Shown here in pieces: positions 1 through 49,211 of a stretch of DNA of 55,913 bases. The DNA comes from a virus. Lineage: Duplodnaviria > Heunggongvirae > Uroviricota > Caudoviricetes. Positions within the stretch are counted from its first letter, which is position 1. The number at the start of each line of letters is the position of its first letter. Under the pieces are notes generated by a model. That model worked only from the letters and a program-made list of their open reading frames with translations. It ran no database searches and was not told the DNA's origin. The stretch lies in IMG/VR virus record IMGVR_UViG_2778261121_000001, positions 1-55,913 of that record; one strand, written 5' to 3'. The translations under genes and the position numbers were made by a program.

Positions 1-110
1 CCATAACCTATTGATATTTAAGGGTATGATTGCAGGTATGGAAGGGGAGTAGTGGCGATCAACGGATTCTTATAGAAAAGAATCAAATTGTGACCGCCAT
101 TATCAATGTT

Positions 111-845
111 TTACATAGTTTTGTTTAGCAGAGAGAGAATTTCATCACTAATTTCACTCGCCTGTTTGATAGCCAATGCAGTTACCTCTTCTATGGTTGG
201 TGACTGTTGATGCTCATGTTTGGTTTCAGTTATGACAATGTGTTCTTCACCTGAATTTGCGCATAGTGCCGCATTGACGATAAGGTTTGAGTAAGAATTT
301 AGCAGAGCACTGTTGATGAACGCTTTCACGGTATTACTGTCTGCACCAAATACATCTTTTCTGACCGCTTCAGCCTCACAGCGAACCCCTGCAGCAACAT
401 CGTGAAGAACATGTATGGCCTTGGGGCTTGTTTGTTCACAGTACTCAATCATTATTGTCGAATTGTTCTGTTCAACAAACGATCTGATGCCTGACGATTC
501 ACCCATAGCATCGAAGGCAGCGTGACCCGCACTGGTAGAGATATCTTCATAGAGTTCTTCATCGCTATCTTTTTCTTCAGGTGTCGAGGTGTCTTCATCG
601 TCGTAATAGATATTGCCTTTAATCAGTGTTTTGGACACTTGATATAAACAATAAGAAACGAGATTTAAGCATTGGATTTTAGCTGTATTGTCCTTTGTCG
701 CCTCGCTCTTCAGTTCTTTCGCTTCTTCAGTAAGGCTGTTGATAAGACTTTGTATTTTTTCCAACGCGTTAGGCGCACACTCCGCGTTGTCCATAAAGAA
801 TTTATAACCAGTCCCAGGGATTTCTAAACTTTTCAACTTTTTCAT
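111..845 (-). CDS. hypothetical protein (244 aa), last gene of a three-gene operon
   Basis: ORF in track; no recognisable motifs; co-oriented with the two upstream ORFs. Confidence 0.45.
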   Translation of the reverse strand: MKKLKSLEIPGTGYKFFMDNAECAPNALEKIQSLINSLTEEAKELKSEATKDNTAKIQCLNLVSYCLYQVSKTLIKGNIYYDDEDTSTPEEKDSDEELYEDISTSAGHAAFDAMGESSGIRSFVEQNNSTIMIEYCEQTSPKAIHVLHDVAAGVRCEAEAVRKDVFGADSNTVKAFINSALLNSYSNLIVNAALCANSGEEHIVITETKHEHQQSPTIEEVTALAIKQASEISDEILSLLNKTM

Positions 846-890
846 TTCTTTGATAATCCTAAAAACAAACTACCAATGCTTTAATATCTG

Positions 891-1190
891 TTACCAGTTC
901 CAGCACTCAAGCCCTTCAACGACCGGTGCGCCACAATCGAAATGTACAGAGTCAAAACCTACATCAAGTACTTTCTGAATGTTAGCAATTGCGCCTTCGG
1001 ATATACCATATCGACGCAAGTTGTCTTTCCAGACATCATCCTGTAACCCGGCGTGGACAATACAACCGCCGTCAATTTGCGAAACCCAATCCAGCTCATT
1101 GCTTGCGATCATGAATCGGCGAGCATCTTCCTCTGATGTATGAGATGAACTGATCAATGCCACCTGGTAGGATTGAGTAATATTTAACAT
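891..1190 (-). CDS. hypothetical protein (99 aa)
   Basis: ORF in track; 7-nt overlap with the upstream ORF suggests translational coupling. Confidence 0.4.
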   Translation of the reverse strand: MLNITQSYQVALISSSHTSEEDARRFMIASNELDWVSQIDGGCIVHAGLQDDVWKDNLRRYGISEGAIANIQKVLDVGFDSVHFDCGAPVVEGLECWNW

Positions 1191-1432
1191 CCTCTCTCCC
1201 CGTTTGGAAACAACTCATTCGCCGTAGTGGATATAACCTCCCAATTAACGCCGACATCAGCGTTATGGCATTGTCTGATTTTTTGCATCACCTGTACGCA
1301 TTGTTCATCAGTGAGATCTGTCCTTACTTCAGCAATATCTTCTTTGTGCCACATAACCATGAGTAATGGTTCGTCTTCTGGATAGTTTTTCAGTTTCTCG
1401 ATGATTTCTTTTGCTGTTCCAAACATCTTCAT
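1184..1432 (-). CDS. hypothetical protein (82 aa)
   Basis: ORF with AGGA Shine-Dalgarno; preceded at 1437-1456 by the element-specific AAACAACTTGTTTTCTTAT motif. Confidence 0.45.
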   Translation of the reverse strand: MKMFGTAKEIIEKLKNYPEDEPLLMVMWHKEDIAEVRTDLTDEQCVQVMQKIRQCHNADVGVNWEVISTTANELFPNGERGC

Positions 1433-1436
1433 ATCC

Positions 1437-1456
1437 TAAACAACTTGTTTTCTTAT
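1437..1456 (-). promoter_or_regulatory. conserved 5'-leader motif TAAACAA-S-TTGTTTTCTTAT (instance 1)
   Basis: Near-identical copies at 15756-15775, 16484-16503, 26710-26729 and 38441-38460, each 5-45 nt upstream of a start codon. Confidence 0.5.
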
Positions 1457-1585
1457 GTGCTTTATTATCTCAAACAACAAAACACAGAAAACAAATTGTT
1501 TTAGGGTTTGTGCAAATCAGAAGGTATTGCGTCTATATGAAAATGCCCAGCGTATTGCTGGGCATTGTGAAGAATGGTTGTTTAG

Positions 1586-3619
1586 TTACTTAACTTGGTG
1601 GCCTGGTTTAGCACCAGCATCCGGGCTTAACAGGAAGATATCTTTCCCACCGGGGCCAGCAGCCATCACCATACCTTCGGAGATACCGAAGCGCATTTTA
1701 CGCGGAGCCAGGTTAGCCACCATAATGGTGTGACGACCAATCAGTGCCTGTGGGTCTGGATAAGCAGAACGGATGCCTGAGAAGACATTGCGTTTTTCAC
1801 CACCTAGATCCAGCGTCAGACGCAGCAGTTTGTCAGAACCTTCAACAAACTCTGCGTTTTCAATCAGCGCCACGCGCAGGTCAACTTTGGCGAAGTCGTC
1901 AAAGGTGATAGTTTCCTGAATCGGGTCGTCAGCCAGTGGGCCAGTTACCGGTGCGGCTGTGGCTTTCACTTCTTCTTTGGATGCTTCCACCAGTGCTTCA
2001 ACCTGCTTCATATCGATGCGGTTATACAGTGCCTTGAACGGATTCACTTTATGGCCCAGCAACGGTTGCTGGATGCCATCCCAGGTCAGTTCTGTATTCA
2101 GGAATGCTTCTGCACGTTCAGTCAGTTTCGGCAGTACCGGCTTCAGGTACGTCATCAGCACGCGGAACAGGTTAATGCCCATAGAGCAAATCGCCTGCAG
2201 ATCGGCATCGCGTCCTTCCTGCTTCGCCACCACCCACGGAGCCTGTTCATCGACATAGCGGTTAGCCAGGTCAGCCAATGCCATGATTTCACGGATAGCT
2301 TTACCAAATTCACGGCTTTCCCATGCTTCGCCAATCACTTCAGCGGCATCAGTAAAGGTTTTGTACAGTTGCGGGTCAGCCAGTTCGCTTGCCAGCACGC
2401 CGTCAAAACGCTTGTTGATAAAGCCTGCATTACGGGAGGCCAGGTTAACCACTTTGTTCACGATATCGGCATTCACGCGCTGAACGAAATCCTCCAGGTT
2501 GAGATCGATATCATCAATGCGCGAAGAGAGTTTCGCAGTGTAGTAGTAACGCAGGCTGTCAGCGTCAAAATGATTCAGCCAGGTGCTGGCTTTAATAAAG
2601 GTGCCGCGAGACTTGGACATCTTCGCGCCGTTCACCGTCACATAGCCGTGAACAAACAGGTTGGTCGGCTTGCGGAAGTTGCTGCCTTCCAGCATGGCAG
2701 GCCAGAACAGGCTGTGGAAGTAAACAATATCTTTACCGATGAAGTGGTACAGCTCGGCGGTGGAGTCTTTCTTCCAGTATTCATCGAAGCTGGTGGTATC
2801 GCCGCGCTTGTCGCACAGATTCTTGAAGGAACCCATGTAGCCAATCGGCGCGTCCAGCCAGACGTAGAAATATTTGCCCGGCGCGTTCGGAATTTCAAAA
2901 CCGAAGTAAGGCGCATCGCGGGAGATATCCCACTGTTGCAGGCCGGATTCAAACCACTCCTGCATTTTATTTGCCACCTGCTCCTGCAACGCACCGCTGC
3001 GGGTCCATGCCTGCAACATTTCGCTGAAAGAAGGCAGATCAAAGAAGAAGTGTTCGGAATCACGCATTACCGGGGTAGCGCCAGAAACCACCGATTTCGG
3101 CTCGATCAATTCAGTCGGGCTATATGTTGCGCCGCAGACTTCACAGTTATCGCCGTATTGATCTGGCGCTTTACATTTCGGGCAGGTGCCTTTTACAAAA
3201 CGATCCGGCAGGAACATGCCTTTTTCCGGGTCGTACAACTGAGAGATAGTGCGGTTTTTAATAAAACCGTTCTCTTTCAGGCGAGTATAGATAAGCTCAG
3301 ACAACTGACGGTTCTCTTCGCTGTGCGTCGAGTGATAGTTGTCATAGCTGATGTTAAAGCCTGCGAAATCAGTCTGGTGTTCCTGACTCATTTCGCCAAT
3401 CATCTGCTCCGGTGTGATACCAAGCTGCTGTGCTTTCAGCATGATCGGCGTACCGTGGGCATCGTCGGCACAGATGAAATTAACCTCGTGGCCGCGCATT
3501 CGCTGGTAACGAACCCAGACATCAGCCTGGATGTGCTCCAGCATATGGCCGAGGTGGATTGAGCCGTTAGCGTACGGCAGCGCGCACGTCACCAGAATTT
3601 TCTTCGCGACTTGGGTCAT
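1586..3619 (-). CDS. metG: methionine--tRNA ligase
   Basis: Translation from [29 protein letters not shown] to the C-terminus matches E. coli MetG almost residue for residue; start set at the MTQ methionine rather than the longer track ORF. Confidence 0.95.
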
Positions 3620-3776
3620 AGTAGGCATTACTTCTTTGTAGTGAAAAGGGGCTTGATAGTAACAAAATGGCCTTATGTCTGCCATGTGATAACAGCATTT
3701 CTCATAAATGATTAAATGTCGTAGCTGGAGTACACTACAAGGCGACAATTGCGCAAATTAAAATAAAGGAGACGGG

Positions 3777-4877
3777 ATGAGCGAGTCCAAATCGCCGGAT
3801 GCCCTGAGAGCAATGGTAGCCGGTACGCTGGCTAATTTTCAGCACCCAACCCTGAAACACAACCTGACTACGCTTAAAGCGTTACACCATGTTGCGTTGA
3901 TGGATGACACACTGCATGTCGAACTAATCATGCCTTTCGTGTGGAATAAGCCTTTTGAAGACCTGAAAGAGCAATGTAGTGGTGATCTGCTCCGTATCAC
4001 TGGCGCAAAGGCTATTGACTGGAAGCTGTCGTACAACATTGCCACGCTTAAGCGCGTCAAAAACCAACCAGGCATTAATGGCGTTAAGAATATTATCGCC
4101 GTAAGCTCAGGCAAGGGCGGTGTAGGCAAATCGTCCACAGCAGTAAACTTGGCACTGGCGTTGGCTGCTGAAGGTGCGAAAGTTGGTATTTTGGATGCCG
4201 ATATCTACGGGCCATCAATTCCAACCATGCTGGGCGCGGAAAACCAACGTCCAACCTCACCAGACGGTACTCACATGGCACCTATTATGTCTCATGGCCT
4301 GGCAACCAATTCTATTGGTTATCTGGTCACCGACGACAATGCGATGGTGTGGCGTGGACCGATGGCTAGCAAGGCGCTGATGCAGATGTTGCAGGAAACA
4401 CTGTGGCCTGATCTGGACTATCTCGTTCTCGATATGCCGCCGGGCACTGGTGATATTCAATTGACGCTGGCGCAGAACATTCCTGTAACGGGTGCTGTGG
4501 TGGTAACTACGCCGCAAGATATCGCGCTGATCGATGCGAAGAAAGGCATTGTGATGTTCGAAAAAGTCGAAGTGCCGGTACTGGGTATCGTCGAAAACAT
4601 GAGTGTGCATATTTGCAGTAACTGCGGTCATCACGAGCCAATTTTCGGCACCGGTGGCGCAGAGAAACTGGCCGAGAAATACAACACGCAGTTGTTAGGC
4701 CAAATGCCACTTCATATCTCACTTCGTGAAGATCTGGATAACGGAACACCAACCGTTATTAGTCGTCCAGATAGCGAATTTACGGCTATTTATCGTGACC
4801 TCGCAGATCGCGTTGCTGCCCAAATGTATTGGCAAGGTGAAGTAATACCTGGCGAAATCGCATTCCGCGCAGTGTGA
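3777..4877 (+). CDS. apbC: iron-sulfur cluster carrier ATPase ApbC/Mrp
   Basis: Walker A SSGKGGVGKSS plus CxxC near the C-terminus; strong similarity to E. coli Mrp; divergent from metG as in enterobacterial chromosomes. Confidence 0.93.
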   Translation: MSESKSPDALRAMVAGTLANFQHPTLKHNLTTLKALHHVALMDDTLHVELIMPFVWNKPFEDLKEQCSGDLLRITGAKAIDWKLSYNIATLKRVKNQPGINGVKNIIAVSSGKGGVGKSSTAVNLALALAAEGAKVGILDADIYGPSIPTMLGAENQRPTSPDGTHMAPIMSHGLATNSIGYLVTDDNAMVWRGPMASKALMQMLQETLWPDLDYLVLDMPPGTGDIQLTLAQNIPVTGAVVVTTPQDIALIDAKKGIVMFEKVEVPVLGIVENMSVHICSNCGHHEPIFGTGGAEKLAEKYNTQLLGQMPLHISLREDLDNGTPTVISRPDSEFTAIYRDLADRVAAQMYWQGEVIPGEIAFRAV

Positions 4878-11161: not shown

Positions 11162-11280
11162 TCTTAACTCCGTTGTTTTCTAGTTGTGGTTATTTTCACA
11201 AATAAGAAAAGGTAGAAAACAATTTATTTAAGGCCACAACTTATGGCCTTTATTTATTCATGCCGAAGGATTTGTAGCGT

Positions 11281-12426: not shown

Positions 12427-14112
12427 TCATTTAACGCGTTTGAAAACGTATACGCTGACTGTGATCCCGGTATCTTCAAACTCGTTGGTAAACGACTTCC
12501 CTTTGGCATAAACGTAATTATCCATCGTCATCCAGCTCAGGATTGGCGCAGTGCCCGGCAATACTGCTACAAGACGACCGCCGAGTTTCAGATGCCCCAG
12601 CGCAGCCAGCGTGTGCTCTCTATGACGACCAAGCGAGTACGGCGGGTTCATAACGATTTTGTCGAACTGATAACCTGCGTTGTCCTCAGACCACTTTATG
12701 AAGTCGCAGCAAATCGTGTTCGTATACCCTTTTCCACGCAGGATATCAGCGAAGAGAGGTGCGATTTCTATGCAGGTAACATCTTCCAGATCGGCGTTAA
12801 TATAGGCCAGAAGATCCCCACGTCCGGCTTGAGGCTCCAACAGCTTCTCACCAGGCTTCAATTCAGTGGCTCTTGCAACGTACTCAGCAATCAAGCGTGG
12901 GGTAGGGTAGAACTGGTGTGATTTTGTATCCGGTATTAAACCGGTAGCCACAATCGTATTTAGCGTATGGCCGATGTCATACGGGAACTGCCAGTGCTTT
13001 TTCTCCTGCACGCCGCCAATGAAGCTCAGTGTGCGCTCAAGCTCTTCCACCTGCGACTTCTGGAGAGCTGAATCAGAGAAGTACCATACGCCTTTGTCTT
13101 TGCTCAATCGCCCGTCACGAAGCGCAGTGCGAACCGGCACGGAGATCGTCTTCTGGATTAACCCGAACTGCTTTGGTGCCCGTGTTTTTGGCGCAGTTCG
13201 GCATGGCGCGGGAATTGCAGCAGGCATACTGTAAGCCAGCACCTCATTCAACTTCCAGGCCACGTCAGGATGTATTTCAAAGTGAACGTTGCCGTTCTTG
13301 AACATCTTCACGCGCATCAGATTTCCATCGACGTTCATCCAGTCACCGGTCTGGCAGTCGTTTGCCCGATACGCAGCTGATAGCACCTCAGCAGTGCGGT
13401 TGATGGTAATAAATTCTTTGTGCGCGAAGAAATGAAGCAAGACACGCAGATCGTCGATGTAGTCCTCTTTGCGATAGTTCACGCTAACGCTGTCCCGCCA
13501 GAAATCAGAAATGCAGTCAGCGATTATCAGACGCTCGCTGAAACCGTTTGTCTTATTTGTCTTGTGCGCAGGACTCAGCGCCTTAAACAAGCCATACACG
13601 CGCTCAGAGAGATATTTGTGCCTGTCATTCAGCAAATTAAGCATCGTGGGTATGACCGTTTCTGCTTTGAACTCCGGTACACCAACGAACTCTTTAACCT
13701 TCATCTGGTAGCCGGTTCTGTCAGTTTTGATGACTTCCTGTTTGCCCTCTATAAACTGCTCGCGCCACTCATCTCGACGGGAAGCTGGCATGATCAGCAA
13801 AACGTTAGTCATGTCCGTGACCTTCCTCCAGTACTCGGCCCAAATATTCTGTTTCACCCATTCCAGATCGACTTTATCCAACCAACCTCGATTTAAACGC
13901 GAGCGATCTTCATCTGGTCGATGGTTTAGTCTCAGCAGGCGATTAATCATGTTGTGGCGTTCGTCGCCATAAACGAAGTCGTGAACCTGATACATGAAGG
14001 CGATCTCTTTCTCGCACTCGGCCACAATTTCGTGGATGACGTTCATTTCCTGCCGATAGTCGATAGCAGTGTTTGAGTTGGCATCGTCGATGATGGAAAG
14101 GGCTGTATTCAT
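12427..14112 (-). CDS. DNA amino-methyltransferase (C-terminal NPPY domain) fused to a ~380-aa N-terminal domain of unknown function
   Basis: C-terminal FYPTP, LEPQAGRGDL (motif I) and NPPY (motif IV); N-terminal domain has no recognisable motif. Confidence 0.7.
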   Translation of the reverse strand: MNTALSIIDDANSNTAIDYRQEMNVIHEIVAECEKEIAFMYQVHDFVYGDERHNMINRLLRLNHRPDEDRSRLNRGWLDKVDLEWVKQNIWAEYWRKVTDMTNVLLIMPASRRDEWREQFIEGKQEVIKTDRTGYQMKVKEFVGVPEFKAETVIPTMLNLLNDRHKYLSERVYGLFKALSPAHKTNKTNGFSERLIIADCISDFWRDSVSVNYRKEDYIDDLRVLLHFFAHKEFITINRTAEVLSAAYRANDCQTGDWMNVDGNLMRVKMFKNGNVHFEIHPDVAWKLNEVLAYSMPAAIPAPCRTAPKTRAPKQFGLIQKTISVPVRTALRDGRLSKDKGVWYFSDSALQKSQVEELERTLSFIGGVQEKKHWQFPYDIGHTLNTIVATGLIPDTKSHQFYPTPRLIAEYVARATELKPGEKLLEPQAGRGDLLAYINADLEDVTCIEIAPLFADILRGKGYTNTICCDFIKWSEDNAGYQFDKIVMNPPYSLGRHREHTLAALGHLKLGGRLVAVLPGTAPILSWMTMDNYVYAKGKSFTNEFEDTGITVSVYVFKRVK

Positions 14113-39643: not shown

Positions 39644-41983
39644 TTACTCTTCTACTGACTCGGTGGGATTGTCTTTTGATCTCCGGTCGTCGATTGCCTG
39701 TAAAGCCGCAATGATTTCAGCTAGTGGCTTCTCCCGATACATCTCGACGATCTGTGATTTGGTGTATTTCTTGTCACCAATTTCTACTCGACCGCTGGCG
39801 TTCTTTGGCAGGTATCCTTCTTCCAGCATGTACTCGACGAGCGATTCGATAACGTCGAGGCCACGAGTAGGATCGAAGTAGAATTTCCAGGTGCATTTGC
39901 CATACGGTGGTGCAACTTTGTTTTTGATGCATTCTGCGCCTACGTCCTGGCCGATCTTCTCTTTACCATCCTTCATCACCGATGCACCAAGACGGATACG
40001 TACAGAAGCGTAGAACTTCGGTGAATCTCCACCTGGCGACGTAGTAGGGTCGCCAAACATTACACCGATTTTTGTGCGAACCTGATTCAAGAAGATGATG
40101 CAGGCGTTGTATTTGCGTGCCCACAAAGCCAGAGTAGGGAAGTTCGCACTCGTCGCACGAGCCAGTGCCGTATTGTCGTTCATGTTTAGCTGATCTTTGT
40201 CTTTGGCTGTGCCTTCAGCCATCTTTTCGAACTTCTCGGCTTTGGAGTTCGGAACCATAGACGCAAGAGAGTCAGCCACGATACAGATAGGTGCTGATTC
40301 GGGGATAAGCTCTTCATCACGAACCAATTTAAGTATTGTGCCGATCAACTCTACAGAGTCTTCGAAGGTATCTGGCTGCTTGTACACCCACTGACCGTCA
40401 TCCTCATCTGCGTTCAGGCCATTGGCTACAGCCAGGCCAACGTCAAAACTGTTTTCATGATCGAGGAATACCGCCAGACCATCTTGTTTTTGAGCGGAGA
40501 TCATCGCTGCTGTTGCAAGGAATGTGTTGTGGCTGATAATCCCGTTAGACCAGAAAGAGTGTGTTTCCGGCATCGCTACGTCGAACGTTGGTGCTTCACC
40601 TTCCTCAATAGCCACGACTTCGTCGTAGAACAAGTTAGAGCCAATTACCGCTGCCAGTTGTGCAAACAGATGCTCGTTAAAACGATTCTTTCTGCCAATG
40701 AAGGAGACATAGATTTCTCGCAGTTTGTCTATTCCGACACGATCGCCGCGGCCAATAACGTGGTCTACCAGAGCGTAGTCTTCACGGGTGGTCTTGGTGA
40801 GCGACTCGTAGAGTGATTTCACTAAGCCGCTGATGTGCGGAACATAGCCTGAGTAAGTGCGGTCAAAACCAATGTCCCGTTTGGTTGCCACTGATAAACG
40901 TGCCGGAGATTCGAAACCAATCGTTGACAGAAAAAGGTCGTAATTAGAGCCACTGAATGACAGCCGGTAATATGTATTTTCATAACCCGCGACGTGTTTT
41001 TCAGAGATAGTTGACGTAATCCCCAGATTCAGGAGCATGAGGCGAATTTGCTGTAGCAGCAGCCCACTCGCGCTCACAACCTCAATGCAGCGACCATCAT
41101 TGACGTGGCATTCCAGCTCAAAGTAGCCGCGAAGGAATGCAATTTGAGCCTCGCTATTGGCGCGACGCACACTCAACGGAACCTGCTTGCCAGCAGCTTT
41201 CTCATACTCCAGACCATATTCTTTAAAAAGCAGCGAACGCACCTCTTTGCTAAACAGCACATGGTCTTCCGAGCCGTTATGTTTTCTCGTAACTGGCATC
41301 TTGTCTGATACCAGCGAAATGAGGCGGTAGTACTCATCCTTGATGAAAGGATCTGTGTTAGAAAAATTCACTGAATTTTCAGAGGCCACGTATCCGTCAG
41401 CAATTAAATAGCCCATCAGTTTTGCGATATTGGCATCCAGGTGCTGATCGCCGAATTGATGTGTGCCAACCATTGAAGGAATCGTGTCGCCTACACTGAT
41501 TTTTTCAGCATGTCGCCAGACGACATTACCTAAGTCGTCAACCACACGGATTGGGTGACGGAACGTAGCCTCGATATAACCGCCTGATGCCAGCTTAATA
41601 CGCTTGAATTTGCGATGGTTGTTCCATGTCAGGTGTGAGGTCTTCTCTATCACGCCATTTTCATTGATGAGTCCAACGTTATGCTCTACATCGCGAGTAG
41701 TGCATGTCGCTTTGTACCCTTCAATCTCAAACAACTCTTTCACTGTTACCATTCCACGCTCCGTCAGCAGCATGGTGTCTGCGGTAACACATTTCCCCGC
41801 ACTTGGAGGACCGAATACTTCGACGATACGACCACATGGGAAGCCGCCATCGTAACGACCGGAAATAGCTTTGTTTAACGGAGGAAAGCCTGTGTCAATC
41901 CAATGAGTTACTTTCTGAATTTCGTCGTTGCTACCGATTTTCTTTTTCAGAGCAAGTGCCAGTGCGGATTTTCCTTTTGCCAT
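39644..41983 (-). CDS. RecA-like recombinase interrupted by an intein
   Basis: Exteins (64 + 293 aa) give a RecA-sized protein with Walker A GPPSAGK|TFLAT split by the intein. Confidence 0.8.
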   Translation of the reverse strand: MAKGKSALALALKKKIGSNDEIQKVTHWIDTGFPPLNKAISGRYDGGFPCGRIVEVFGPPSAGKCVTADTMLLTERGMVTVKELFEIEGYKATCTTRDVEHNVGLINENGVIEKTSHLTWNNHRKFKRIKLASGGYIEATFRHPIRVVDDLGNVVWRHAEKISVGDTIPSMVGTHQFGDQHLDANIAKLMGYLIADGYVASENSVNFSNTDPFIKDEYYRLISLVSDKMPVTRKHNGSEDHVLFSKEVRSLLFKEYGLEYEKAAGKQVPLSVRRANSEAQIAFLRGYFELECHVNDGRCIEVVSASGLLLQQIRLMLLNLGITSTISEKHVAGYENTYYRLSFSGSNYDLFLSTIGFESPARLSVATKRDIGFDRTYSGYVPHISGLVKSLYESLTKTTREDYALVDHVIGRGDRVGIDKLREIYVSFIGRKNRFNEHLFAQLAAVIGSNLFYDEVVAIEEGEAPTFDVAMPETHSFWSNGIISHNTFLATAAMISAQKQDGLAVFLDHENSFDVGLAVANGLNADEDDGQWVYKQPDTFEDSVELIGTILKLVRDEELIPESAPICIVADSLASMVPNSKAEKFEKMAEGTAKDKDQLNMNDNTALARATSANFPTLALWARKYNACIIFLNQVRTKIGVMFGDPTTSPGGDSPKFYASVRIRLGASVMKDGKEKIGQDVGAECIKNKVAPPYGKCTWKFYFDPTRGLDVIESLVEYMLEEGYLPKNASGRVEIGDKKYTKSQIVEMYREKPLAEIIAALQAIDDRRSKDNPTESVEE
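40526..41791 (-). mobile_element. intein with LAGLIDADG homing-endonuclease domain (422 aa)
   Basis: Starts with Cys after GPPSAGK, ends with HN before Thr; LAGLIDADG-like blocks (LMGYLIADGYV, FLRGYFELECHV). Confidence 0.7.
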
Positions 41984-44959: not shown

Positions 44960-46129
44960 TCACGTCTTAATAGTTTCTGCTACGTCGGCTAATATAGCTT
45001 CTAGTCGTTCTCCCTCTTCAGGTCTGAAGTAAAGAATGTTGGGGTTAAACCCGTAAAAGACAGTAACGTCAAGGTCTGGAAGATACTCCTTCCTGCCGAC
45101 CAAATCGGATGGCTTGTTTTTGTTGTTAAACAATGAAGTTGCCCGGCTGCCACACGTCAGCACATAGGTCGGACGCACCAGATTGATCTCTTCACGCATA
45201 AAGTCGGTGAACTGGCCGATCTCGTCTTTGGTGTAGTCTTTTTCTTTGTCTTTAACCTTCTTGCAAACGCCTGTGACATAGAGATCGCCCATGCGTAAAT
45301 CTCCAGCCGTCAATAGCTTGGCCTTAAAATCGTCGTATCCGTTCTCCATAAAGTAACCGGTTCGAGCATCATTGCCGTTCGCATTGTCCAGAATGATCAT
45401 GATTTTCGGCTTAATACCAATGCTGGGGCGGATTAGTTCATCACCTAAGCCCATTTCAGCCGCCATCCGTGTCATGAGCACGTTAATCTCAGCCGAACGT
45501 TTGGGGTTCATCTCAAACGGACGTGAGGCTTTAACTGCGTCTATGACAAGATTTCCCATCAATTCAGCCTGGTCGCGTAGGCGCTCTGGATCAGTTGCTG
45601 GCAGACTACCTGGCTCGATGGATGCAAACGCCCCTACTTTTTGCAGCGATTCGCGCACTCGACTATTACAGGCACGTTTCTCGACAGCTTCTTCGAATTG
45701 CGCAAGTGACTCGAATTTGCCACCAACCTTTTCTCGCGCTCTCATGATGGCCTGGCAGCCATTCTCAGAACACCCCTTCACAGCAGAGAAGGGCGCATAC
45801 AGCACCTGGCTGCCATCTTCAAGCGTGCGGATCTCGATTCGGTTAGATGACACGTTAACGTCTGGTGGCAATACGCGAATACCATAGGTCAGCGCATCTT
45901 TAACCAGCCCCTGGTGTTTATCTTCGCCAAGAATAGTGAGAGCAGCAGCGAAAAACTCTGCGGGATAATGAGTTTTCAACCACATAGATTGATAACTGAT
46001 CAAGGAGTAAGCAACAGAGTGTGATTTGTTAAAGGCGTATCCACCGAACTTTTCAAAGGCGTCCCATATTTCCTGGGCTTTCTCAGGGCTAAGACCTTCC
46101 TGCTCGGAAATAACTTTTGCAATTTTCAT
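44960..46129 (-). CDS. DNA polymerase III alpha (DnaE) C-terminal fragment
   Basis: Begins MKIAKVI...FEKFGGYAFNKSHS, aligning with the DnaE fingers region; own ATG in the conserved GGGAAAACACATG context. Confidence 0.75.
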   Translation of the reverse strand: MKIAKVISEQEGLSPEKAQEIWDAFEKFGGYAFNKSHSVAYSLISYQSMWLKTHYPAEFFAAALTILGEDKHQGLVKDALTYGIRVLPPDVNVSSNRIEIRTLEDGSQVLYAPFSAVKGCSENGCQAIMRAREKVGGKFESLAQFEEAVEKRACNSRVRESLQKVGAFASIEPGSLPATDPERLRDQAELMGNLVIDAVKASRPFEMNPKRSAEINVLMTRMAAEMGLGDELIRPSIGIKPKIMIILDNANGNDARTGYFMENGYDDFKAKLLTAGDLRMGDLYVTGVCKKVKDKEKDYTKDEIGQFTDFMREEINLVRPTYVLTCGSRATSLFNNKNKPSDLVGRKEYLPDLDVTVFYGFNPNILYFRPEEGERLEAILADVAETIKT

Positions 46130-46149
46130 GTGTTTTCCCGTTGCTAGCT

Positions 46150-46851
46150 TCAAATGCTTGCTTTTTTTAAGATATTTGCGATTTGAGTGTTAGATATGCC
46201 GAATTTTTCTCGCAACTTTTCGTAGGTTGCGCCAGCTTTGCGCAAGGCGACCACTTCAGCTCTTGCTTCGTCATCCAGCTTTTTGGATGCCCTTGAGGCA
46301 ACGATCGGCCCACCAATACGTGCCCATTTCTTCCCGGTGACGATATGGTGAATATAAAGCTCAGTTAAACCATATTCGGCCGCGAGGTCTTTGTTCAGAG
46401 CACCCTCTGACTTTTTAATGCGAATAGCAATGACGACTTCGTTGGTTAGCTTGGCGTTGTAGCGCCTCTCACCAAACTCAACGGTATCGTGTGCAATGGC
46501 GTCAGCCATGTTGTCGACTTGAGTGCCATACGCGAGATTGAAGGGCGCATTGTTTGATGGTTTACCGTCAAGATGACGAATAAGTAAGCCTTCTGGTCGT
46601 TCTCCGTGGAATGCAGTTGCTACCAGATAATGAACTGTGCGGTCGTATTTGACGCCGTTGACGCTTAGTTTCACGCCAAGATGTCCAAAATCATTGATTA
46701 CGCGAGGTTTTAGGATTTGCCCCTTCTTCACCCATTCGCCCCCTTTGGGGGCTGTTTGTATAACATCTAATGAGCGAATGCGTCCTAAACTGGATGCTTC
46801 GTAATAACCTTCAAATTCAGGAATAGATTTCCAAACTTCTTCCACCGTCAA
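46150..46851 (-). CDS. HNH homing endonuclease inserted within dnaE
   Basis: 233-aa ORF in a different frame from both dnaE halves, overlapping the upstream stop and ending 18 nt before the downstream ATG; family assigned from the split-gene context, no HNH or NUMOD motif checked. Confidence 0.6.
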   Translation of the reverse strand: MTVEEVWKSIPEFEGYYEASSLGRIRSLDVIQTAPKGGEWVKKGQILKPRVINDFGHLGVKLSVNGVKYDRTVHYLVATAFHGERPEGLLIRHLDGKPSNNAPFNLAYGTQVDNMADAIAHDTVEFGERRYNAKLTNEVVIAIRIKKSEGALNKDLAAEYGLTELYIHHIVTGKKWARIGGPIVASRASKKLDDEARAEVVALRKAGATYEKLREKFGISNTQIANILKKASI

Positions 46852-49211
46852 ACTCCAAAATCAACAATATCAGCGTTGTCACTCATCGCTTCGTCATAGG
46901 TCCTGCGTTTGCCGTCAGAGCACAGCAGCATGGCCTTTTTGTGGACTTCTACTGTGCTTCCGTCTTCAAGTGACAGTGTCACCCAGCCTGCTTGTGCTCG
47001 TTCTACAAAATCGCTGCCGATCGCTTTCATCTTTTCCATGTTCTTCTTACCGATGGCGGAACGCAGAGCATCAGCCTCCGCCATAGAGAATCCAGCGAGC
47101 ACACGAGAGCTTTTCATAATTTGCTCTTGATAGAGCAAAACGCCGTTAGTTTCTTTGGTTGTTTCCTCAAGACGAGGATGAATTGAATGTGGAGCCATAA
47201 AACCTTTGGCGACAGAAACATAGTCATCCAACATGCCTGACTGAATTGGCCCCGGCCGGAAGAGCGCAGTTGTAGCAACAACCGTTTTAAAGCTCATTGG
47301 CTCAATTCCACCACCTAAATCTTTAAGCAGCTTGCGCATTGGGCCTGATTCAAGCTGGAAAACACCTTGAGTGTACCCAGCAGCAAAACCATCCAGCACC
47401 TTGCGATCCTCAAGAGAAATGGCATCAAGATTGATATCTTCACCTGTGTTCTCTTTTATGTAGCGTTTTGCACTATCGAGCAAATCGAGAGTTGCCAGGC
47501 CAAGCACGTCTAGCTTAATTAGGCCCATAGCCTCGCAGTAACGCTTGTCAAATGCGATACAACGCGCGTCACCACGGCGTTCAACCGGTGTACGTTCTGT
47601 CAGAGGAACACCTGCTACGATCATCCCTGCCGCATGTCTACCAAAGCCACGCATAAGGCTTTGTAACTTGCAGGCTGCATTGAATGCATCAGGATATTTT
47701 GTTGCGTATTTGTCGAGACTTGCCAGTTGTTCGCGCAGCTCTTCCAATGGAAGGCTATCATCCTCGACGTTCTTCAGTTCTTTTGATACCGCCATATCTG
47801 CGGACTCCACACCATAAATACGAGCGGTGTCACGTAGTGCAGAGGCTGCGCCCAGGTAGGTGAAGTTCGGAATGCCTGCAACGTAATCTTCGCCGTAGCG
47901 TTCATTCAGATACTCGATCACCTCATGGCGACGTGCCTGGCTGAAGTCCAAGTCCGCATCTGGCAAGTCGAGACGCTCAGGGTTGATGAAACGCTCAAAC
48001 AGAAGACCGTGACGGATTGGGTCGACGTTGGTTATGCCTATGCACCACGCCACCAGAGAACCGGCAGAGGAACCACGACCAGGCCCGACAGGAATGCCAG
48101 TTTCACGGCTGTGATTCATCAGATCGCGTACCATCAGGAAGTAACCACAAAATCCCAGGCGAGTCAGCGTGTCCATTTCGTACTTAAGCCGTTCAACATA
48201 AATCCTGTTCTCAGAAGCCGGTGGTGTGTAGCCAAACTCTTTTGTGGTAAGACGTTTACGCAGCCCAGCAACGGCCAGTTTCATCAGCGTTGCAGGCTCG
48301 TCGTCTGCCATCTTTGGCAGTGCTGGTGGCAATTCATGCCAGCGCCATGTGCAGGCATCGATAATGGTATCCTGCGTTGTTGAGGCCATTGCAGCTGTTA
48401 CCGGCACATCCATGCGAACGGAGAAGGCTTTAAGAGCCTCAAGGAGATGGCGGCGACCATTGACGGCGTTATCTCGCTGGTGGGGGATACGCAGACGATG
48501 CGGCTGGTCGATTTTGATGTTGTTCGTAACCATGTGCGCAATGTCTTTAATGTCTGCATCGTCGATCGATTCGTAATAAGCGGGATAGAACGCTACTGGC
48601 TCTATTTTCAGTGCTCTGGCGACTTTCATCGCCCGGACGTTAATCTGGTCGTAGAATGGTGTAGGGTGCGGATAAACCACACTATAGAAGTTGTCTTTTC
48701 CACCTGCTGTAATCAGTGAGCTTATGATTTTTGCAAAATCGTTGCGTTGGAACACGCTACCGATGTCGGAAGTGAGCAGGATGATGTTGCCTTTGGCATA
48801 TGTAGAAACCAACTGTTCGAGCGAGAGACGCGGTACAAAGTAGAACTGTTCTCGTGTGTTGGCCACCGTCATTAGTTCGCAGATGTCGCGATATCCTTGC
48901 TCATTTTTAATTAGAGCGGTAAACGAGTAGTTACGTCCTCGCTCTAATGATTCCATACATCCCTTAGACTCTTTAGCAAGTTTAGCCCGGTACTCGTATG
49001 TGGGATCATCAACGATATTTAGTTTCACACCACAAATAACCGCCATGTCGTCACCAGCGGCACGTTGTAGTGGAATAACACTCGCAATATTCATGCTATC
49101 TGCTGAAATTACAGCGGTGTAGCCAGCTTCTCTGGCAATCTTCACCGCGTTTTCCGCTTTTAAAGCCGACTCCCCAAGTGAGAAGTCAGTTCGAACCATC
49201 AGTGCCTTCAT
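46848..49211 (-). CDS. DNA polymerase III alpha (DnaE) N-terminal fragment (PHP and polymerase core)
   Basis: 787 aa aligning with the DnaE N-terminal two thirds; conserved start context. Confidence 0.85.
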   Translation of the reverse strand: MKALMVRTDFSLGESALKAENAVKIAREAGYTAVISADSMNIASVIPLQRAAGDDMAVICGVKLNIVDDPTYEYRAKLAKESKGCMESLERGRNYSFTALIKNEQGYRDICELMTVANTREQFYFVPRLSLEQLVSTYAKGNIILLTSDIGSVFQRNDFAKIISSLITAGGKDNFYSVVYPHPTPFYDQINVRAMKVARALKIEPVAFYPAYYESIDDADIKDIAHMVTNNIKIDQPHRLRIPHQRDNAVNGRRHLLEALKAFSVRMDVPVTAAMASTTQDTIIDACTWRWHELPPALPKMADDEPATLMKLAVAGLRKRLTTKEFGYTPPASENRIYVERLKYEMDTLTRLGFCGYFLMVRDLMNHSRETGIPVGPGRGSSAGSLVAWCIGITNVDPIRHGLLFERFINPERLDLPDADLDFSQARRHEVIEYLNERYGEDYVAGIPNFTYLGAASALRDTARIYGVESADMAVSKELKNVEDDSLPLEELREQLASLDKYATKYPDAFNAACKLQSLMRGFGRHAAGMIVAGVPLTERTPVERRGDARCIAFDKRYCEAMGLIKLDVLGLATLDLLDSAKRYIKENTGEDINLDAISLEDRKVLDGFAAGYTQGVFQLESGPMRKLLKDLGGGIEPMSFKTVVATTALFRPGPIQSGMLDDYVSVAKGFMAPHSIHPRLEETTKETNGVLLYQEQIMKSSRVLAGFSMAEADALRSAIGKKNMEKMKAIGSDFVERAQAGWVTLSLEDGSTVEVHKKAMLLCSDGKRRTYDEAMSDNADIVDFGV

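Follow-up and report, generated by a model that had tools for sequence, protein, structure and literature searches.

At the left end of a 55,913-nt stretch of viral DNA (IMG/VR record IMGVR_UViG_2778261121_000001, positions 1 to 55,913; the whole stretch is called the window below), three open reading frames (ORFs) lie close together on the minus strand, and the question is whether they form one compact system or a collection of separately acquired genes. Judged from its sequence, the host element of the locus is an SSU5/pHCM2-type phage-plasmid. A first-pass annotation had described a translationally coupled operon of three co-oriented ORFs of 82, 99 and 244 amino acids (aa), here named orfA, orfB and orfC, with a palindromic leader motif upstream. 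The ORFs and their orientation were confirmed, with the start of orfA probably at 1426, and all three remain genes of unknown function. With slightly better than even confidence, we take the locus to be a mosaic early-accessory locus of the phage-plasmid that holds no dedicated three-gene system. The following features are involved:

1432-1184, minus strand: orfA, 82 aa, or 80 aa from the ATG at 1426; acidic; optional cassette
1190-891, minus strand: orfB, 99 aa; DUF5983 (YeeW-type); conserved anchor of the locus
845-111, minus strand: orfC, 244 aa; isoelectric point (pI) 4.64; soluble, predicted all-helical orphan; optional cargo gene
124-890: orfC cassette including its leader, 767 bp; replaced by 5 bp in Escherichia phage PhiR41_1 (blastn)

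When window bases 1-1600 were compared with complete E. coli genomes, plasmids were matched in 227 genomes and chromosomes in none. The best full-length matches were two Escherichia marmotae plasmids (98-99% identity), and the Escherichia phages Cyrano (pLF82) and CMS-2020a also matched the region; identity to phage-plasmids of about 108 kb and to these two phages was 96-98%. All three genes were present together in 2 of 229 related PLSDB records, namely the two E. marmotae plasmids. The compact module that had been proposed thus lacks conservation as a unit. In E. coli plasmids and Cyrano, 9 bp are found instead of the 243-bp orfA cassette (1191-1433; blastn), and the orfC cassette is missing just as cleanly from PhiR41_1. 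Thus, orfA and orfC are clean independent indels around orfB. The combinations found were:

orfB alone: PhiR41_1
orfA and orfB: Enterobacter
orfB and orfC: Cyrano and eleven PLSDB records having orfC without orfA
orfA and orfB, followed by a 185-aa gene, UzuA and a 172-aa gene: Citrobacter
orfB, followed by UzuA and a 171-aa gene: K. pneumoniae
orfB, followed by a 396-aa gene: pHCM2
orfB, followed by a 66-aa gene: K. oxytoca

Since the combinations vary around orfB, this gene and the promoter were taken as the conserved anchor. Every SSU5-like relative examined carried a DUF5983 gene here. Between promoter and orfB, orfA may be inserted or absent, and the position behind orfB is a variable cargo slot. 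The accessory position assigned to the locus was borne out, its content being variable among relatives. In K. pneumoniae, the slot gene (plasmid L008, 5400-6236) encodes a GIY-YIG nuclease that PADLOC matched to UzuA, of the Uzume defence system (E 3.2e-57); the Citrobacter slot gene (L009, 6046-6882) shares 76% identity with this Klebsiella UzuA. In both genera, the UzuA gene is followed by a conserved protein of about 171 aa with a signal-peptide-like N-terminus. orfA was found at 90% identity or more in 27 PLSDB records; the Escherichia-type orfB was found in 185; the orfC copies, all at least 95% identical, were confined to 40 PLSDB plasmids of Escherichia and Shigella.

The motif upstream of the genes proved to be present twice. 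Two exact copies of the palindrome AAACAAnTTGTTT, 51 bp apart from centre to centre, flank an extended -10 element upstream of orfA:

1489-1501: distal palindrome AAACAATTTGTTT (13 bp), exact match; centre at about -38 from the predicted transcription start
1464-1472, minus strand: extended -10 element TGAGATAAT; GAnAATAA invariant in 12 promoters, with TGn before most
1438-1450: proximal palindrome (AAACAAGTTGTTT on the coding strand); centre at about +14; abuts the ribosome-binding site of orfA

This layout was shared by 12 aligned promoters from 9 elements and consists of the distal palindrome, 19 nt, TGnGATAAT(AA), about 13 nt and AGAAAACAA, the spacing between distal copy and -10 hexamer being 19 nt throughout. 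The alignment included eight DUF5983/orfA-type promoters of further relatives and three other promoters of like build. The layout is found ahead of the DUF5983 gene (or of the orfA-type gene where there is one) in E. coli, Cyrano, pHCM2, Citrobacter, Enterobacter, Klebsiella pneumoniae, K. oxytoca and one metagenomic contig, and it is also found before two other genes. The palindrome arms are conserved while the centre base varies, and in K. pneumoniae a change in one half-site has its mirror image in the other.

The link of the locus to a regulon of the element, suggested earlier, was also supported, in that the palindrome of the orfA-orfB promoter is element-wide and the architecture is shared in relatives. 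In the window, 8 sites with at most one mismatch to AAACAAnTTGTTT were counted versus 0.39 expected, and 0 of 100 shuffles reached 8. The complete relative NZ_CP072690 (110.7 kb), an E. marmotae plasmid collinear with the window save a few insertions, contains 17 sites versus 0.5 expected. Sixteen of these have the same polarity and the extended form (A/T)AGAAAACAAnTTGTTT and lie 20-45 nt 5' of minus-strand (lytic) gene starts; the seventeenth (record position 74917) falls within a stretch below orfC where no gene is annotated. Genes behind the palindrome include an HD-domain gene, nrdB and cobT in the window and, additionally in NZ_CP072690, a helicase gene, the terminase operon and small genes lying below orfC. 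The other window copies are located at 11217, 15757, 16486, 26711, 38441 and 52851, with half-sites near 11173 and 50639; they lie upstream of the minus-strand HD-domain gene, a 189-aa hypothetical gene, a small ORF, nrdB, a small ORF upstream of an SPFH gene, and cobT/cobS/dnaE. The terminase operon of the complete relative carries two adjacent copies (record positions 61545 and 61570).

Taken together, the orfA-orfB promoter appears to be a sigma-70 extended -10 promoter with putative operators at about -38 and +14. Phage P1 has dispersed operators for its C1 repressor, and by analogy the palindromes described here may be operators of the element's lysogeny repressor.

For orfC, the picture was different from that of a simple single operon. 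Features of such an operon are present, namely co-orientation, a 7-nt overlap between orfA and orfB, a 45-nt gap between orfB and orfC, and no terminator-like site between the genes. The translational coupling that had been proposed applies to orfA and orfB, where the orfB start lies on the orfA stop (ATGTTAA); it does not extend to orfC, which follows the gap with an AGGA of its own. The window motif scan found no palindrome upstream of orfC, and a simple promoter and terminator scan of the locus was uninformative. The phage-plasmid Cyrano of E. coli LF82 carries orfB as CYRAN_101 and orfC as CYRAN_102 (99.6% identical), and the orfB/orfC junction is identical in sequence in the window and in Cyrano. 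For this relative element, log2 RNA sequencing (RNA-seq) values for five conditions were taken from a published supplementary table:

LB (BLB columns): orfC 6.0/5.6; orfB 2.8/3.0
B1 columns: orfC 7.4/7.7; orfB 3.4/3.0
B6 columns: orfC 9.2/9.0; orfB 3.9/3.9
MB1 columns: orfC 8.4/8.3; orfB 5.0/4.6
MB6 columns: orfC 6.9/6.7; orfB 4.9/5.5

The values thus ranged from 5.6 to 9.2 for orfC and from 2.8 to 5.5 for orfB, and orfC RNA was 8- to 40-fold more abundant than orfB RNA in these Cyrano lysogens. orfB was low like lytic genes and, in LB, close to the lowest neighbour value (CYRAN_103, 2.32). The transcript levels of orfC and orfB are therefore not those of one operon. Since orfC was high while orfB was low, the Cyrano data indicate that orfC is transcribed on its own in the plasmid state. 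CYRAN_102 has been listed as a moron, 6-fold over the prophage background (PMC9928086, Table 1). A candidate promoter was predicted as follows:

881-910, minus strand: candidate internal orfC promoter, TTGAGT-18 nt-TATTAA in the 3' end of orfB; same in Cyrano; indirect support from the surplus of orfC over orfB RNA in LF82

The claim that none of the proteins has a recognisable domain failed for orfB, failed in part for orfA and stood for orfC; profile scans of the three proteins returned only DUF5983 for orfB and PHROGs of unknown function. orfB matched Pfam PF19419 (DUF5983) over model positions 3-90 of 90, scoring 42.1 bits where the cut-off is 27 (E 1.1e-10), and 16 columns, including ISxxH, FD and a C-terminal WxW, were invariant across 11 DUF5983 sequences down to 35% identity. 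The AlphaFold2 (AF2) model of orfB, with a predicted local distance difference test score (pLDDT) of 69.5, is a small alpha/beta domain and matched predicted structures of phage DUF5983 proteins in BFVD (Foldseek E 1.3e-4, probability 1.00). Against solved structures the model gave no significant match, and the glyoxalase-like fold, a weak literature assignment for DUF5983, was not significant for it. By tblastn against PLSDB, orfB homologues were found in 2302 plasmids, 1664 of them conjugative, and a search of genome contigs with orfB returned a single close copy. The Escherichia-type orfB is unusually divergent, being 43-45% identical to other SSU5-like orfB proteins, which are 60-90% identical among themselves, and it is without a 6-residue segment found in all of those. 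Published DUF5983 members are YeeW and Aec77, encoded downstream of cbtA in CP4-44-type islands; DUF5983, lying downstream of the CbtA toxin in E. coli islands, has been termed a 'partner' (PMC10790755). No CbtA or CbeA domain was detected in orfA or orfC by Pfam scan, and the locus is flanked by metG and by hypothetical genes.

orfA is probably 80 aa long because all its homologues start at the second ATG (1426), with an AGGA 7 nt upstream. By hhalign, the orfA family was aligned with the DUF1380 protein of pOXA-48 over residues 1-66 of the latter (probability 86%, E 4.8e-6), an alignment that covers the N-terminal 62 columns only (80 aa vs 136 aa). The Citrobacter orthologue of orfA matched the same protein by BLASTP (E 3e-6), and orfA orthologues, e.g., in NZ_CP072690, are labelled DUF1380 by NCBI. 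The Pfam model PF07128 (DUF1380) did not match orfA at E values up to 1. Based on these alignments, orfA is best called a putative truncated relative of the N-terminal half of DUF1380.

The third protein, orfC, has a net charge of -19 and a central acidic run, DDEDTSTPEEKDSDEELYED. With a maximal hydropathy of 0.99, a membrane or secreted protein was rejected. Its only match in the Pfam, NCBIfam, PHROG and PADLOC scans was PHROG 20845, of unknown function; the best PADLOC hit, PDC-M02A (E 0.02, 12.3 bits), is not a match. Searches of PDB sequences with single sequences and profiles gave nothing below E 0.3, and a word-indexed search of 5.8 billion proteins returned only close relatives of the locus proteins. 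An exhaustive phmmer search with orfC against 1.84 billion representatives yielded fragments and one true distant homologue, P0036 (21% identity, colinear, pairwise E 8e-12). Its gene lies 44 nt downstream of a DUF5983 gene on a divergent SSU5-like metagenomic contig (L004). For P0036 itself, neither tblastn against plasmids nor PADLOC returned anything. A housekeeping function was rejected for all three proteins, as none is similar to a chromosomal core gene. orfB and, putatively, orfA are new members of known uncharacterised families, and orfC is a lineage-restricted orphan that had already been noted as a Cyrano moron.

Relatives of orfA and orfB recur in those regions of conjugative plasmids that are the first to enter a new cell. 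In pOXA-48-type IncL plasmids, an orfB homologue follows ssb in the leading region, next to mobA and the relaxase gene, and is accompanied by DUF4942, DUF1380 and an antirestriction gene; in Klebsiella IncFIB/HI1B plasmids, the orfB homologue follows DUF4942. Among leading-region-enriched families, DUF1380 has been listed at rank 7, DUF5983 at rank 72 (p 6.6e-199) and DUF4942 at 24/76 (Samuel et al. 2024, PMC11541004, Supplementary Table 1). The window also encodes a 561-aa DUF4942 (methyltransferase-like) protein in the same early region (12427-14112), of a family that is leading-region-enriched; in K. oxytoca and on contig L004, the DUF4942 gene lies only two genes upstream of the DUF5983 gene.

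These observations can be combined into a working model. The extended -10 promoter, bracketed by the two AAACAAnTTGTTT copies, would drive orfB together with orfA where the latter is present. orfA-orfB would be repressor-controlled, i.e., silent in the plasmid state and switched on right after DNA entry or induction. Since their families are enriched in leading regions, both proteins would most likely help DNA that has just entered a new host to become established, through anti-defence or through handling of host DNA-metabolism proteins. orfC, an independent 767-bp cassette transcribed in Cyrano lysogens, would be cargo with its own promoter. Because of this expression and of the slot contents in relatives, it is most likely a lysogen-benefit gene, possibly for phage exclusion or defence. 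A bolder version of the model holds that orfC is a new single-gene exclusion or defence protein and that DUF5983 and DUF1380-like proteins form a DNA-entry toolkit shared by phage-plasmids, conjugative plasmids and CP4-type islands, which neutralises a host barrier and is released from a P1-like network recognising AAACAAnTTGTTT; in this full form we regard it as doubtful.

Several points weigh against the working model or limit it. Leading-region enrichment is a statistical association, and we know of no DUF5983 or DUF1380 protein with demonstrated activity. A leading-region location beside the transfer origin (oriT) was not found for the locus itself: the relatives are non-mobilizable, no relaxase or mobilisation gene is annotated near it, and it is surrounded by metG and by phage genes of DNA metabolism. 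In scans against Pfam, NCBIfam, PHROG and PADLOC, the locus proteins showed no similarity to known anti-restriction, anti-CRISPR or PsiB models. The transcription starts were deduced from sequence, and the repressor is hypothetical. The LF82 RNA-seq data stem from a relative that lacks orfA, and their strand-specificity is unverified. For orfC, the single-sequence AF2 model has a pLDDT of 39, which makes the helical prediction one of low confidence, and no PADLOC model matched. Finally, the sole distant orfC homologue again directly follows a DUF5983 gene.

How the genes should be grouped is the first matter on which other explanations differ. If the three genes were one operon encoding a single compact system under the leader motif, e.g., a new defence or toxin-type module, their co-orientation, the short gaps, the orfA/orfB overlap and the absence of an intervening terminator would be accounted for; with the motif directly upstream, read-through on derepression would also yield a tricistronic RNA. 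The distribution has largely refuted this already, as the trio occurs in 2 of the 229 related plasmids, orfA and orfC are independent indels, and all combinations are found (orfB, orfA with orfB, orfB with orfC, and orfA with orfB plus other cargo). Considering also the 8- to 40-fold excess of orfC RNA over orfB RNA in LF82 and the lack of PADLOC matches, such a system is very improbable. A toxin-antitoxin module was rejected as well, with no toxin domains and uncoupled expression. A functional link between orfB and orfC alone is possible because the distant orfC homologue follows a DUF5983 gene. The two would then be a pair of regulator, antitoxin or sensor with effector, in which orfC is the partner of DUF5983; the only distant homologue lies 44 nt behind such a gene, and DUF5983 has been called a 'partner' downstream of CbtA (PMC10790755). 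orfB is found without orfC, however, in about 78% of the Escherichia-type plasmids and in all other genera, DUF5983 in 2302 plasmids versus orfC in 40, and expression of the two is uncoupled in lysogens. Since the adjacency on L004 is also explicable by an occupied slot that was inherited vertically, we consider the pair rather improbable.

Other explanations concern the palindrome and the nature of orfC. The palindrome might be a leader-RNA or hairpin element, or a site for a phage-specific activator or transcription mode, instead of a repressor operator. In line with this, the proximal copy lies within the predicted 5' leader, 20-41 nt away from start codons, the half-sites TTGTTTTCT and AGAAAACAA are complementary in 12 promoters with one compensatory change, and the whole promoter region folds into a strong hairpin (-33.7 kcal/mol, z -5.8). 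That hairpin is explained by the two palindrome copies, which are complementary by construction and pair automatically, whereas the leader by itself is not more stably folded than shuffled sequence (z -1.3) and a 13-nt palindrome with a 1-nt centre makes a weak RNA hairpin. Furthermore, the distal copies are upstream of the -10 element and thus outside the transcript, a free centre base with fixed arms is as for dimer-binding DNA sites, and the genes behind the motif are silent in LF82 lysogens, as an operator predicts. An RNA-level role is therefore less likely, and this explanation as a whole seems unlikely. For orfC, an acidic DNA-mimic anti-restriction protein of the Ocr/ArdA type would fit the pI of 4.64, the charge of -19, the run DDEDTSTPEEKDSDEELYED, the all-helical, soluble character and the adjoining genes of leading-region type. 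Known DNA mimics, however, have a much higher charge density, sequence and profile searches showed no similarity to ArdA, Ocr or KlcA, and the distant homologue has not kept the acidic run. As orfC is moreover expressed in established lysogens and lacks the early-promoter palindrome, a DNA mimic is very unlikely.

The surroundings of the locus fit the element type. The relatives are plasmids of about 108 kb, typed as non-mobilizable and as IncFIB where a replicon is named. Their gene content comprises a complete module for siphovirus morphogenesis, partition genes and a large block for DNA metabolism with nrdAB, thyA, dfr, dnaE, helicase, primase and ligase among its genes. The features next to orfA are:

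3748-1586, minus strand: metG, upstream of orfA on the same strand
beyond metG, plus strand: apbC/mrp
1542-1566, minus strand: terminator-like hairpin of metG, AATGCCCAGC-AATAC-GCTGGGCATT followed by TTCAT; parts metG from the orfA promoter

This hairpin (RNAfold -17.6 kcal/mol) was missed by the simple terminator scan. metG and apbC/mrp (window 1586-4877) make up a host-like insert within the phage early region, with a G+C content of 50-54% versus 36-46% in the AT-rich locus. In LF82, the apbC homologue CYRAN_99 was expressed 9-fold over the prophage background, and metG was low. An Rfam scan gave only sub-threshold matches, caused by palindromes. One of them, to the Salmonella Hfq-binding small RNA STnc490 (window 1444-1566, minus strand; 27 bits vs a gathering threshold of 56, E 0.0076), covers both the terminator of metG and the promoter of orfA and is probably due to the hairpins.

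To the left of orfC, a stretch of 1.4-1.6 kb without annotated genes (window 1-110 onward; L002 11722-13265) is present at the equivalent place in all SSU5-like relatives viewed. It contains short ORFs only and no Rfam match; in the E. marmotae relative, it shows degenerate direct repeats spaced 90-113 bp apart, along with a single palindrome site. Two small genes are annotated there in Cyrano, with log2 values of 2.32 and 2.6-4.7 in lysogens. Elsewhere, window 40522-41792 represents about 1.27 kb that is extra or divergent relative to the closest complete plasmid, inside a gene of 779 aa vs 357 aa, and window 46027-47016 carries about 0.99 kb in place of 0.26 kb inside dnaE, which appears as three consecutive ORFs. 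Insertion of mobile elements (intein or homing endonuclease) may account for both segments, as may frameshifts.

The locus is of wider use in several respects. DUF5983 and DUF1380 belong to the uncharacterised families that are most abundant in resistance-plasmid leading regions, and the phage-plasmid early promoter offers an independent setting in which to test them at DNA entry, with inducible promoters and plaque or lysogenisation read-outs. The slot behind orfB behaves like a cargo hotspot (Uzume, the orphan moron and others) that could be mined for new defence and exclusion genes, the plasmid family being frequent among clinical Enterobacteriaceae. The palindrome provides a handle on the undescribed lysis-lysogeny circuitry of SSU5/pHCM2-type elements.

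Compared with known systems, the locus shares traits with several and is identical to none. The palindrome sites resemble the P1 C1 network in that one short motif stands at many promoters of a phage-plasmid of about 100 kb (here 17 sites in 110.7 kb). In contrast to the asymmetric operator of P1, the candidate operator of this element is a 13-bp palindrome. With the leading-region arrays of conjugative plasmids (PMC11541004), the element shares the recurrence of DUF1380, DUF5983 and DUF4942 and, in the working model, the logic of first expression on DNA entry into a new cell. Unlike those arrays, it has no oriT, relaxase or single-stranded entry; the arrays use single-stranded DNA (Frpo) promoters, whereas here a double-stranded sigma-70 promoter with operator-like palindromes would drive expression. 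orfB shares the Pfam match and the invariant residues with the DUF5983 proteins, namely YeeW from the CP4-44 island of E. coli, Aec77 and the product of the pOXA-48 post-ssb gene; it is only 33-45% identical to the other members, has 6 residues fewer and is encoded in a phage-plasmid early operon instead of downstream of cbtA or ssb. orfA aligns with the N-terminal half of the DUF1380 proteins (PF07128; YcgB/YubF-type) of IncF, IncI and IncL leading regions, but these have about 136 aa compared to 80 aa, and their Pfam model misses orfA. As with prophage morons and cargo hotspots that hold defence genes such as Uzume, orfC appears to be autonomously expressed (in Cyrano, by published RNA-seq) and sits in a slot that holds UzuA in relatives, while its sequence resembles neither UzuA nor any PADLOC model.

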